Assembly (NCBI GenBank): GCA_000999715.1
Contig: LCGL01000001.1
Span: 259,139-323,138, forward strand
Source of the DNA: Candidatus Falkowbacteria bacterium GW2011_GWF2_43_32
GTDB lineage: Bacteria > Patescibacteriota > Patescibacteriia > Patescibacteriales > UBA12465
Direction of reading: 5' to 3'
DNA: 64,000 nucleotides
Of the stretch, positions 22,955-25,039 are shown piece after piece (the stretch's first letter is position 1; every line of letters begins with the position of its first letter). A program made the translations under genes and the position numbers. The notes beneath the pieces are model-generated. The model did no database searches. It saw only the letters and a program-made list of their open reading frames with translations, and was not told the origin of the DNA.

Positions 22955-23759
22955 TGTATGATTCCATTATTACTAATGGTACGGACTATGTCTTCATCCC
23001 ACTAAAATCTAATGGGAGTTGGCGTATTATGACTCAAAGCCATAAGTTTCTTCCGGCCAAGGAAGAAAACAAGTCTCTACAGGGTCATAACTCAATTTTA
23101 TAGCGCATTGACGGAATAATATATTTCTCTATCAAATTCCTGAGTTTTGGCAAACTAGACTTGATAAATCTTATTCGATAATAAGATTTGTCTTTATTTA
23201 AACCGGCCGATAAGCCAATTTTCTTTAAAGAAGAAATCATTTTCCGCTGCGACCCGTTATCAAATTGCTGAGTATTAAGGTAAATGTCCGACGAACGACA
23301 TTTGCTGCCATCGTCCATAAACCAAATTGCTAAAATCATAGAATTAAGCCGAAGATTGCCAGGAATTATTTTTTTACCATTTTGATAAAAATTCTTAAAT
23401 AATTCCGTTAACTCGGGGTGTTGTTCGGTATAAAACCGATACGCGACCCTGCCTCCATTGCCTTTTCTTGATTTTGGCGGACTCTTCACAATACTTTTCA
23501 ATTGATCATACTTCCAATCAACATATTTTTTCTGTTTTATGGAGTGATTAATCTCTAAAAAAGCATTTCTTCTACCTTTGATAACGCGCAAGTAACCGTC
23601 GCCCAAAATTGAGCCGACGATTATTGATTTTTGCGTTTGAGTTAGACTTCCCGCGGCGTTGTCCATAATTAATTATTATAGGCCAAATAAATTATGGAGT
23701 CCACCGTTATAAGCCAATTTTATTCACTCGATTACTCGAGATGGCACCCCGATATGTTA
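22955..23759 (-). mobile_element. group I intron in 23S domain V (between E. coli-equivalent U2500 and C2501)
   Basis: Exon sequence GGCACCU|CGAUGUCGG is split by 805 nt. The intron guide sequence AUAUCG-GGGUGCC pairs with the 3' exon CGAUGU (P10) and the 5' exon GGCACCU with a U-G wobble (P1). Core-like elements UAGAGACU and GAAGACAUAGUCC are present. Confidence 0.75.
23085..23666 (-). CDS. LAGLIDADG homing endonuclease (two-motif type), intron-encoded
   Basis: 193 aa. Motifs IIVGSILGDGYL and LAIWFMDDGSK. It lies entirely within the 23S insertion. Confidence 0.85.
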   Translation of the reverse strand: MDNAAGSLTQTQKSIIVGSILGDGYLRVIKGRRNAFLEINHSIKQKKYVDWKYDQLKSIVKSPPKSRKGNGGRVAYRFYTEQHPELTELFKNFYQNGKKIIPGNLRLNSMILAIWFMDDGSKCRSSDIYLNTQQFDNGSQRKMISSLKKIGLSAGLNKDKSYYRIRFIKSSLPKLRNLIEKYIIPSMRYKIEL

Positions 23760-24297
23760 AGGTGCCGAACCAGGTCGTCGATATGGACTCTTGGACCTGA
23801 CTAGCCTGTTATCCCCGGAGTAGCTTTTATCCGATGAGCTTCCACCATCCTACATTGAATGGTCGGATCACTAAGTTCCGCTTTCGCGACTGCTTGACTT
23901 GTAGGTCTCGCAGTAAAGCCGGCTTTTGCCTTTACACTATCTCCCGGGTTTCCATTCCGGGATAGCCGACCTTGGTAAACGCCTCCGTTACTTTTTGGGA
24001 GGCATCCGCCCCAGACAAACTACCCACCAGACACTGTCCCCCGCTATCGCGGGGTGAGAATTAAAAATAGGCAAGGGTGGTATCTCACTGGTGCCCGAAG
24101 GCTCCCACCTATGCTGAACAAGCATACCTCTAATTCAATATCAAGTTGTAGTAAAGCTTCACGGGGTCTTTTCGTCCAACTGTGGTTAACGAGCATCTTT
24201 ACTCGTATTGCAATTTCACCGAGTACTTCGTTGAGACAGTGCCCAAGTGGTTAAGCCATTCGTGCAGGTCGGAACTTACCCGACAAGGAATTTCGCT

Positions 24298-25039
24298 CTT
24301 CACTTGCTTAATATTTCTATTAAGAATGGACTTTATCTTACTCATGATATGAATTTAATTCTTCTAAAACTTTTAGAGCGGATATTTTATCCTGTCTGTT
24401 CATTTTAGAAGCGATGGCAATAATATCCTTAATGCCTTCAGCCGATAAATGTTTATTTTGGTTCATCAATGCAATAATCTCCTTAAATTTAATGAAATCA
24501 AATTTCTTTTGAGTCAATAACGGATATTTGTCAAAATGAGGAATAACGAACTTATTCATATGTTCTAAAGATCTTATTCTCAGCTCATACCGAGTATCGT
24601 GATTTATTCTCACGACTCCAGCGCCGAAATATTTCTTTAAAGCATACAATAATTGTATATCGCGTTTATGCTGGACTATCCGAAATTCCGGCAATACTTG
24701 AAAATTTATTTTCATCGTATCGTTTTTATTTATTCCAACATAAAACGTTCCTTCACCATCGACAAATCCGCTTACCCAATGTGGATTTATCTTCATATTT
24801 TAGAGTCTCAGTTTTTAAGTCTCTGAGGATTTTTAATCCTGCGCGTTTGCCCCGTGTATCTAAGGATTTTTACTGAGGTCGACAACCCCGAGTACCTTAA
24901 ATCTTTTGAGGATTTTCACGCATTTTACTGAATATTTAATGACAACTATAACTTTCGCTATAGCCAGGCAACGTATTTTTATGTTTATCACCATATAATC
25001 GTCCCAGTCCTTTTGCAATCTAATGTAATAAATTGCAAA
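24298..25039 (-). mobile_element. group I intron in 23S domain IV (between E. coli-equivalent U1931 and A1932)
   Basis: Exon sequence GGUCCUAAGGU|AGCGAAAUUCC is split by 742 nt. The intron ends in G. Core-like elements CUCAGAGACU and UAAGAUAAAGUCC are present. Confidence 0.75.
24338..24796 (-). CDS. LAGLIDADG homing endonuclease (single-motif type), intron-encoded
   Basis: 152 aa. The motif WVSGFVDGEGTFYV is typical of LAGLIDADG_1. Its stop codon overlaps the intron core element AAGAUAAAGUCC. Confidence 0.85.
   Translation of the reverse strand: MKINPHWVSGFVDGEGTFYVGINKNDTMKINFQVLPEFRIVQHKRDIQLLYALKKYFGAGVVRINHDTRYELRIRSLEHMNKFVIPHFDKYPLLTQKKFDFIKFKEIIALMNQNKHLSAEGIKDIIAIASKMNRQDKISALKVLEELNSYHE

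Follow-up and report, generated by a model that had tools for sequence, protein, structure and literature searches.

The 64,000-nucleotide (nt) stretch of Candidatus Falkowbacteria DNA analyzed here (the window) carries a single 23S ribosomal RNA (rRNA) gene, with no other copy seen in these 64 kb, and this gene is interrupted by two group I introns that each contain a gene for a LAGLIDADG homing endonuclease. The introns are designated L1931 and L2500 after their insertion positions in the large-subunit (LSU) rRNA of Escherichia coli. With a probability of roughly 0.85, both are mobile elements that are spliced out with ligation of the exons and that spread by homing. The introns are real and are ordinary for bacteria of the Candidate Phyla Radiation (CPR), a group for which the phenomenon is already documented. 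The repeated loss of the terminal G of the intron is the sole mildly surprising feature of the locus.

The 23S rRNA gene and the intron borders

The gene lies on the minus strand (27170..22606) and is a full-length 23S rRNA by its match to Rfam LSU_rRNA_bacteria (RF02541, model positions 1-2925, 1979.6 bits). The L1931 intron, first in the transcript, is 742 nt long (25039..24298) and ends in G; its borders on the minus strand read CGUCCUAAGGU/UUUGCAAU ... AAGUGAAG/AGCGAAAUUCC, where the slash marks the splice site. The L2500 intron, second in the transcript, is 805 nt long (23759..22955) and ends in A, with borders that read GGCACCU/UAACAUAUCGGGGUGCC ... AAUCAUACA/CGAUGUCGG. In a pairwise alignment with E. 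coli rrl, the first insert follows string position 1930 and GGCACCU ends at 2499. Because the aligned rrl copy (2903 nt) is 1 nt shorter than the 2904-nt reference, the canonical sites are U1931/A1932 and U2500/C2501. When the unspliced gene was aligned globally to E. coli with MAFFT, the second intron was wrongly put at the 3' end, and the borders were therefore taken from the exact exon strings. After ligation, the junctions would be GGUCCUAAGGU-AGCGAAAUUCC at 1931 and GGCACCU-CGAUGUCGG at 2500.

A first-pass annotation had placed inserts at 22955-23759 (805 nt, U2500/C2501) and 24298-25039 (742 nt, U1931/A1932), and the exon strings and the E. coli alignment confirm both. The exon strings, core strings and open reading frame (ORF) sizes that it gave are all correct, and the exon junctions that it proposed stand. 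It left the strand unstated: every string that it quoted is a reverse-complement read, and since the gene is on the minus strand, its "intron 1" (L2500) is the downstream intron in the RNA.

An assembler could in principle have joined foreign intron sequences into a 23S gene. Regions of rRNA are hard to assemble, and many contigs of about 700-950 nt consist of the intron alone, which speaks for such an error. Against it, a 177-kb contig from another assembly has the same two-intron layout, down to the 672 nt between the endonuclease genes and the identity of the flanking genes, and the junctions are identical in contigs from different samples. The endonuclease proteins are also recorded on contigs of up to 251 kb, and the exon-binding helix of the L1931 intron (see below) fits the host's own helix 69 variant, UCGUC. 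An assembly artefact is thus extremely improbable; the recurrence of the layout on the 177-kb contig and the identity of the junctions in three other samples show that the two-intron structure is not one.

Short contigs that contain only an intron (660-950 nt; loci L002-L006 and L009-L012, from several Rifle samples) break off either in the exons, 29-79 nt beyond the splice site, or within the conserved core of the intron. They show that such introns fragment rRNA loci in metagenome assemblies. The ends of these contigs were considered as evidence for the borders and are uninformative, as the breaks lie in the exons or in the intron core.

The host is a CPR bacterium; the first-pass annotation had called ORF-bearing rRNA insertions a hallmark of CPR genomes. 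Four housekeeping proteins encoded in the window, PNPase, IF-2, FtsH and the pyrophosphatase, match Candidatus Falkowbacteria records exactly (e.g., KKT13709.1), and contigs with the same endonucleases come from Rifle groundwater samples (PRJNA268031).

Group I assignment

Both inserts are group I introns. The Rfam Intron_gpI model (RF00028) matches the L2500 insert with 33.1 bits (E = 1.5e-6), and only the 3' half is aligned correctly because a 582-nt ORF parts P1-P6 from P7-P9. The L1931 insert gives two matches, of 26.8 bits (E = 1.1e-4) and 19.3 bits (E = 0.02); an ORF-less relative of this intron (locus L135) reaches 44.6 bits (E = 1.9e-9). Since the ORFs split the cores and the scores stay below the gathering score, the assignment rests mainly on manual and comparative structure. 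After deletion of the ORFs, both introns fold much better than shuffled sequences (z = -5.87 for L2500 and z = -4.72 for L1931). The group I architecture suggested in the first-pass annotation is therefore borne out by a covariance model that matches both inserts, below its gathering score, and by a P1-P9 fold; the core elements that it quoted, likened to R and S in L2500, were located in both.

Fold and conservation of the L2500 intron

The L2500 intron has a contiguous internal guide, AUAUCG-GGGUGCC, as first read in the earlier annotation. Its GGGUGCC part pairs with the exon string GGCACCU to form a 7-base-pair (bp) P1, in which the U-G pair at the splice site is present in 68 of 68 homologues. 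Its AUAUCG part pairs with CGAUGU of the 3' exon to form a P10 of 6 bp that is kept among the relatives: pairing is seen in 88-100% of them at five positions and in 70% (42/60) at the sixth.

The remaining helices of the core were all identified. P2 is CUCGA-GUAA-UCGAG, P3 is UUGGC/GCCAA, P4 is ACGGU/GCCGC, P5 is UCCAUAAUU/AAUUAUGGA, P6 is GGG/CCC, P6a is AACUCAA/UUGAGUU and P9 is CCAUUA-GUAA-UAAUGG. The core elements UAGAGACU (23079..23072) and GAAGACAUAGUCC (22995..22983) are present, the latter in agreement with the RF00028 consensus for J8/7. The segment GUAGAGACU, which comprises J6/7 and the P7 5' strand, pairs with AGUC within GAAGACAUAGUCC so that P7 is GACU/AGUC. Two extra hairpins (P7.1 and P7.2) lie between P7 and the P3 3' strand, a layout that is presumably that of subgroup IA. 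With the exception of the P7 pseudoknot, the minimum free energy (MFE) fold of the ORF-deleted RNA equals the helices drawn by hand (P1, P2, P3, P4, P5, P6/P6a, P7.1, P7.2, P8 and P9).

Comparison of the 68 homologues shows that P4, P6 and P7 are essentially invariant. P2, P3, P5, P6a and P9 have four to six pair types per position with 84-100% pairing, and a control in which the partner column was shifted gave much lower pairing values. The fold of the L2500 intron is a bona fide group I fold.

Exon recognition by the L1931 intron

The first-pass annotation reported that this intron ends in G and has core elements, both of which hold (CAGAGACU at 24825..24818 and AAGAUAAAGUCC at 24339..24328), and that no convincing P1 could be found, which is superseded. 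P1 is GCCU:AGGU, beside P10 (CGUU:AGCG). The guide reads 5'-CGUU-GCCU-3' and forms 4 bp with AGCG (P10) and 4 bp with AGGU (P1), the latter including the U-G wobble. The contiguous P10-P1 layout is found in nearly all L1931 relatives with a full core. The 42 relatives compared here comprise fetched loci and the yield of one pattern scan of metagenome contigs. A second intron family inserted at 1931 in other CPR genomes has an ordinary guide, GCU-GCCUUAG (GCUGCCUUAG), with a P1 of 7 bp, and the CGUU-GCCU guide is homologous to it.

A 5' extension precedes the guide in the L1931 intron. It opens with hairpin A, directly at the 5' splice site; the stem of the hairpin is kept among the relatives while its sequence is free. 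An 8-mer, UGGGACGA, ends 26 nt before the guide and pairs with exon positions -12 to -5, UCGUCCUA (25051..25044), which are the 3' strand of helix 69. This 8-bp exon helix is paired in 335 of 336 cells of the alignment of the 42 relatives, with compensatory changes at -12, -11 and -8, and is recovered both by RNAalifold and by the MFE fold of the single sequence. The 8-mer tracks the helix 69 strand of the host: exons with UCGUC, CGGUC and UCGUU face introns with GACGA, GACUG and AACGA, respectively.

The core of the L1931 intron contains P3 (UUCAGU/ACUGAG), P4 (UGCGUG/CGCGCA) and an extended P5. The Rfam alignment assigns P3, P4, P5, P6, J6/7, P7 and the P3 3' strand, and AAGAUAAAGUCC with P9 makes up the separate 19.3-bit match. 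Relative to the close relatives L096 and L099, compensatory changes occur in P2, P5a, P5b and P8 (three sequences of this core subtype).

Two other candidates for the exon-recognition elements were rejected. CCUUAG (24865..24860) as the guide would set a U opposite the splice-site U; it is instead the 3' strand of P5a, with AUUUAAGG as its partner, and has compensatory changes in L099. Hairpin A as P1, when extended over the splice site, runs into U-A and then G-G mismatches, and it is the 8-mer that tracks the exon while the sequence of the hairpin is free.

Short elements of 187-260 nt occupy the L1931 site in other loci (e.g., L047, L064, L106, L108 and L148). In common with the intron of the window, they have the hairpin, the 8-bp clamp, the guide, P2, P8, J8/7, P7 and P9. 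What they lack is the P4-P6 domain between P3 and J6/7, and their splice-site U faces A (ACCU), not G. RF00028 gives no match to the element in L108 at E <= 1. These elements may be decayed introns or a reduced form of the ribozyme.

The terminal A of the L2500 intron

The terminal G of group I introns normally fills the G-binding site in the second step of splicing. The L2500 intron has no terminal G; its last nucleotide is an A at 22955. The first-pass annotation had pointed this out, and the A is real, as independent assemblies agree on it and no shift of the borders restores a G. A sequencing or assembly error is ruled out by the identity of the junctions across independent assemblies, the terminal A recurring in the independent assemblies of three other samples. 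Moving both borders to regain a G always disrupts GGCACCU-CGAUG of the rRNA, and the nearest upstream G as the intron end would leave 9 extra nt in the peptidyl-transferase ring.

The terminal A is not confined to this copy. Among the 68 L2500 relatives, 15 end in A, which accounts for all of the non-G cases, and these go back to about 11 independent changes as counted on a rough neighbor-joining tree. Of the 42 L1931 introns that are of the same type as the one in the window, 13 likewise have a non-G end (A in 8, C in 3 and U in 2). The terminal-A L2500 introns do not have a compensating change in P7, which is invariant in the 68 sequences, and they do not have a longer P10 (mean of 5.2 bp with A and 4.8 bp with G).

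These observations bear on whether the L2500 intron is followed by exon ligation at all. It may be that only the first step takes place, or that a host nuclease excises the intron, so that the 23S rRNA is left broken at 2500; in a milder form, ligation would need help from a protein, for instance from the intron's own endonuclease in a maturase role. This alternative is unlikely. In its favor are the terminal A of this copy in three independent assemblies, the non-G ends of the L1931 relatives and the loss of the terminal G some 11 times (15/68) alongside an invariant U-G wobble and P7 pocket, which suggests that selection on step two is weaker than on step one. Many bacteria, moreover, tolerate a fragmented 23S rRNA and remove intervening sequences (IVS) without ligation, as stated in PMC11270868. 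Against it, the P10 of this copy has 6 bp, and relatives that end in A have a P10 no weaker than that of relatives that end in G; such conservation makes sense only if P10 still positions the 3' exon for ligation. The break would also fall in the peptidyl-transferase ring, and a Coxiella 23S intron that "lacks the canonical omegaG" is called self-splicing in the title of its description (Raghavan et al. 2007, as listed in the references of PMC11270868). A loss of normal selection on the second splicing step in these CPR bacteria is unlikely; the 23S rRNA would then function in two pieces, unligated at a break in the peptidyl-transferase ring, or its ligation would need a protein partner in addition to the ribozyme. 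For the L2500 intron, splicing with ligation remains the preferred reading, in which step one is expected to be normal and step two to be slower and positioned by P10.

Homing endonucleases

Both endonuclease ORFs are intact, lie on the rRNA strand and occur one per intron, as a 193-amino-acid (aa) two-motif protein in L2500 and a 152-aa single-motif protein in L1931. The first-pass annotation had classed them in this way, and both score above the Pfam threshold: the 193-aa protein matches LAGLIDADG_2 (PF03161, 139.3 bits, 1.6e-40) and the 152-aa protein LAGLIDADG_1 (PF00961, 101.3 bits, 6.5e-29). ILGDG and FMDDG of the 193-aa protein align with the two motifs of I-SceI and conserve both catalytic Asp residues, so that by sequence it is a small two-motif monomer. 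The 152-aa protein, which also keeps its catalytic acidic residue, has a single motif, GFVDGEG. The solved structures closest to it are that of a putative homing endonuclease of 170 aa (5gkk_A, 2e-50) and the halves of I-OnuI-type enzymes, and by analogy with I-ShaI it should act as a homodimer.

The ORFs are woven into the ribozymes that contain them. In L2500, the ORF begins with an AUG within the P5 3' strand, runs through the P4 3' strand, P6 and P6a, and fills the P6a loop; its stop codon, UGA, abuts the P6 3' strand. The start codon of the 152-aa ORF is paired in P8a, and its stop codon, UAA, overlaps J8/7. Both starts are thus base-paired in ribozyme helices (23670..23662 in the P5 3' strand and 24798..24794 in P8a, minus strand), and translation and intron folding should therefore compete.

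The elements are widespread. There are 2420 homologues of the 193-aa protein and 764 of the 152-aa protein. A scan of species-representative genomes finds the L2500 element at no fewer than 580 loci (at least 580), and the intron is at the identical site in about 70 of 80 fetched loci, those with both exon borders located. The L2500 intron with its LAGLIDADG_2 gene also occurs in non-CPR 23S genes on long contigs: an Omnitrophota chromosome (L081, CP070797.1), Actinomycetes (L077, L082 and L088, on contigs of 0.49-1.24 Mb), Acidobacteriota (L079 and L084) and Elusimicrobia (L089). The L2500 element is therefore not confined to CPR.

Proposed splicing and homing

In the proposed pathway, the whole 4.6-kb precursor would be transcribed, and each intron would fold as a group I ribozyme and leave by two transesterifications. 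The first would begin with an external guanosine, held in P7, that attacks after the U of the P1 U-G wobble. In step two, the freed 5' exon would attack the 3' splice site held by P10, and joining of the exons would restore helices 69-71 and the peptidyl-transferase ring. In L1931, the 4-bp P1 would be supplemented by the 5' extension that clamps exon positions -12 to -5. L2500 would be a natural terminal-A variant whose ligation leans on the 6-bp P10. Each LAGLIDADG endonuclease would cut intron-less 23S rDNA at its own site (the predicted target sites are GGTTCGGCACCT/CGATGTCGGCTC and CGTCCTAAGGT/AGCGAAATTCC), and repair would copy the intron in. Homing of this kind would explain why both elements are found in hundreds of species.

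Several points weigh against this pathway. The L2500 intron is without a terminal G, and a G-to-A change at the intron end strongly impairs exon ligation in model ribozymes. P4 of this L2500 copy has an A-C mismatch as its outermost pair and a wobble at another, the P1 of L1931 has just 4 bp, and neither intron is at the RF00028 gathering score of 50 bits (33.1 for L2500; 26.8 + 19.3 for L1931). In addition, the L1931 intron of Simkania was described under the title "An unspliced group I intron in 23S rRNA" (Everett et al. 1999, as given in the reference lists of PMC11270868 and PMC1995217).

The Simkania title also favors retention, in which the mature 23S rRNA would keep one or both inserts as expansion segments, the outcome reported for that L1931 intron. 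Retention is highly improbable here. The 742- and 805-nt inserts would split helices 69-71 and the peptidyl-transferase centre, the guide pairings to both exons are conserved and covary with the host sequence, and insertions of CPR bacteria have been reported to be removed from transcripts (Brown et al. 2015, as cited in PMC11270868). Excision with ligation, followed by spread through homing, remains the most probable course for both introns.

Features of the locus

Features of the 23S rRNA locus in the window
Feature	Coordinates	Strand	Description and evidence
23S rRNA gene	22606..27170	minus	4565 nt with both introns; Rfam RF02541; aligned to E. coli rrl
5S rRNA gene	22369..22483	minus	122 nt downstream of 23S; Rfam RF00001, 94.2 bits
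L2500 group I intron	22955..23759	minus	IA-like with P7.1 and P7.2; exon strings; RF00028 33.1 bits; covariation (n = 68); z = -5.9
L2500 internal guide	23743..23755	minus	AUAUCG (P10) + GGGUGCC (P1), contiguous; exon pairing, covariation
L2500 5' core: P2, P3 5' strand (UUGGC), P4, P5, P4 3' strand, P6 and P6a 5' strands	23637..23740	minus	
L2500 3' core: P6a/P6 3' strands, J6/7 + P7 5' strand GUAGAGACU, P7.1, P7.2, P3 3' strand (GCCAA), P8, J8/7 + P7 3' strand GAAGACAUAGUCC, P9, tail AAUCAUACA	22955..23095	minus	
193-aa two-motif LAGLIDADG_2 gene (I-SceI-like)	23085..23666	minus	Pfam PF03161; I-SceI alignment
L1931 group I intron	24298..25039	minus	Exon strings; E. coli alignment; RF00028 26.8 + 19.3 bits; z = -4.7
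L1931 5' extension: hairpin A (25039..25012), AGGAC (25011..25007), 8-mer UGGGACGA (25006..24999)	24999..25039	minus	Covariation, RNAalifold, MFE fold
L1931 guide	24966..24973	minus	CGUU (P10) + GCCU (P1); exon pairing; homology to second-family guide
L1931 5' core: P2, P3 5' strand, P4, P5/P5a/P5b, P6, J6/7, P7 5' strand CAGAGACU, P3 3' strand, P8 5' strand	24803..24965	minus	Rfam alignment, compensatory changes, MFE fold
L1931 3' part: P8a + P8 3' strands, J8/7 + P7 3' strand AAGAUAAAGUCC, P9 (CUUAAUA-GAAA-UAUUAAG), tail CAAGUGAAG, terminal G	24298..24351	minus	
152-aa single-motif LAGLIDADG_1 gene, in P8 loop	24338..24796	minus	Pfam PF00961; PDB 5gkk_A

The 23S rRNA gene differs from that of E. 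coli at further places, whose borders are approximate as they come from one pairwise alignment. The larger insertions are about 114 nt after position ~275 (26897..26784) and 75 nt after ~655 (26395..26321), and the smaller ones are 24 nt after ~1163 (25852..25829) and 26 nt after ~1249 (25733..25708), all on the minus strand; deletions lie at about 1008-1042, 1708-1724 and 2135-2159. The insertion at ~1163 is at what is presumably the helix 45 IVS site. No 16S rRNA gene was found in the 64,000-nt window, though the 23S and 5S genes are adjacent, and the rRNA genes of the host appear to be unlinked. The window also contains a transfer-messenger RNA gene (40651..40239, minus strand) and ten tRNA genes.

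Significance

The host comes from the Rifle CPR dataset, the source of the first description of such rRNA insertions, and the locus adds no new biology to the established spread of homing-endonuclease-driven introns in CPR rRNA genes. Such introns lengthen rRNA genes by 1.5 kb and confuse both rRNA-based surveys and the annotation of CPR genomes, for which correct borders are useful. Two features could interest ribozyme specialists. One is the frequent natural change from G to A at the end of the otherwise strictly conserved, endonuclease-bearing L2500 family. The other is the split exon recognition of the L1931 family, with its 4-bp P1 and separate 8-bp clamp on helix 69.

Comparison with known systems

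The yeast omega intron and the L2500 intron are both group I introns in domain V of the LSU rRNA, and their endonucleases belong to the same family (LAGLIDADG_2), aligned over residues 16-191 with both motifs. The mitochondrial omega intron is inserted at LSU position 2449, as compared with 2500 here. I-SceI has 235 aa and the L2500 endonuclease 193 aa. The ORF of L2500 occupies the P6a loop, with its start codon inside P5.

The Coxiella intron that lacks a terminal G is inserted at L1917. It resembles the L2500 intron in being a bacterial group I intron of the 23S rRNA gene with a non-G end, and it is called self-splicing in the title cited in PMC11270868 (Coxiella burnetii; Raghavan et al. 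2007). It differs in that no endonuclease gene is tabulated for it in PMC1995217, whereas the trait occurs in about a fifth of the large, endonuclease-bearing L2500 family.

Insertions in CPR rRNA genes have been described from the same organisms (Brown et al. 2015; Tsurumaki et al. 2024, PMC11270868), and the window's host is part of the Rifle dataset. Tsurumaki and coworkers report that 82% of CPR 23S genes have insertions, of which 45% are group I introns by Rfam, and that the 23S insertions are concentrated near the peptidyl-transferase centre, most of them with LAGLIDADG genes (PMC11270868). According to the same source, LAGLIDADG_1 genes of CPR bacteria are found at 1917, 1931, 1952, 2593, 2604 and 2657, and the rRNA insertions are absent from transcripts (Brown et al. 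2015, cited therein). The available text of PMC11270868 makes no mention of position 2500, variation of the terminal nucleotide or split exon recognition. It does report that I-ShaI, from site 23IS7 (1931 in the paper's site list), cleaves its own insertion site and dimerizes.

L1931 introns with a single-motif LAGLIDADG gene are established in Thermotoga, Simkania, Synechococcus and organelles, and some of their ORFs reach into the core (PMC1995217). The introns tabulated there are at the same site as that of the window and are of 654-700 nt (Table 1 of PMC1995217), compared with 742 nt here. Their endonucleases are of the same type, with 143-167 aa as against 152 aa, and in both the known L1931 introns and that of the window the ORF reaches into the core helices.

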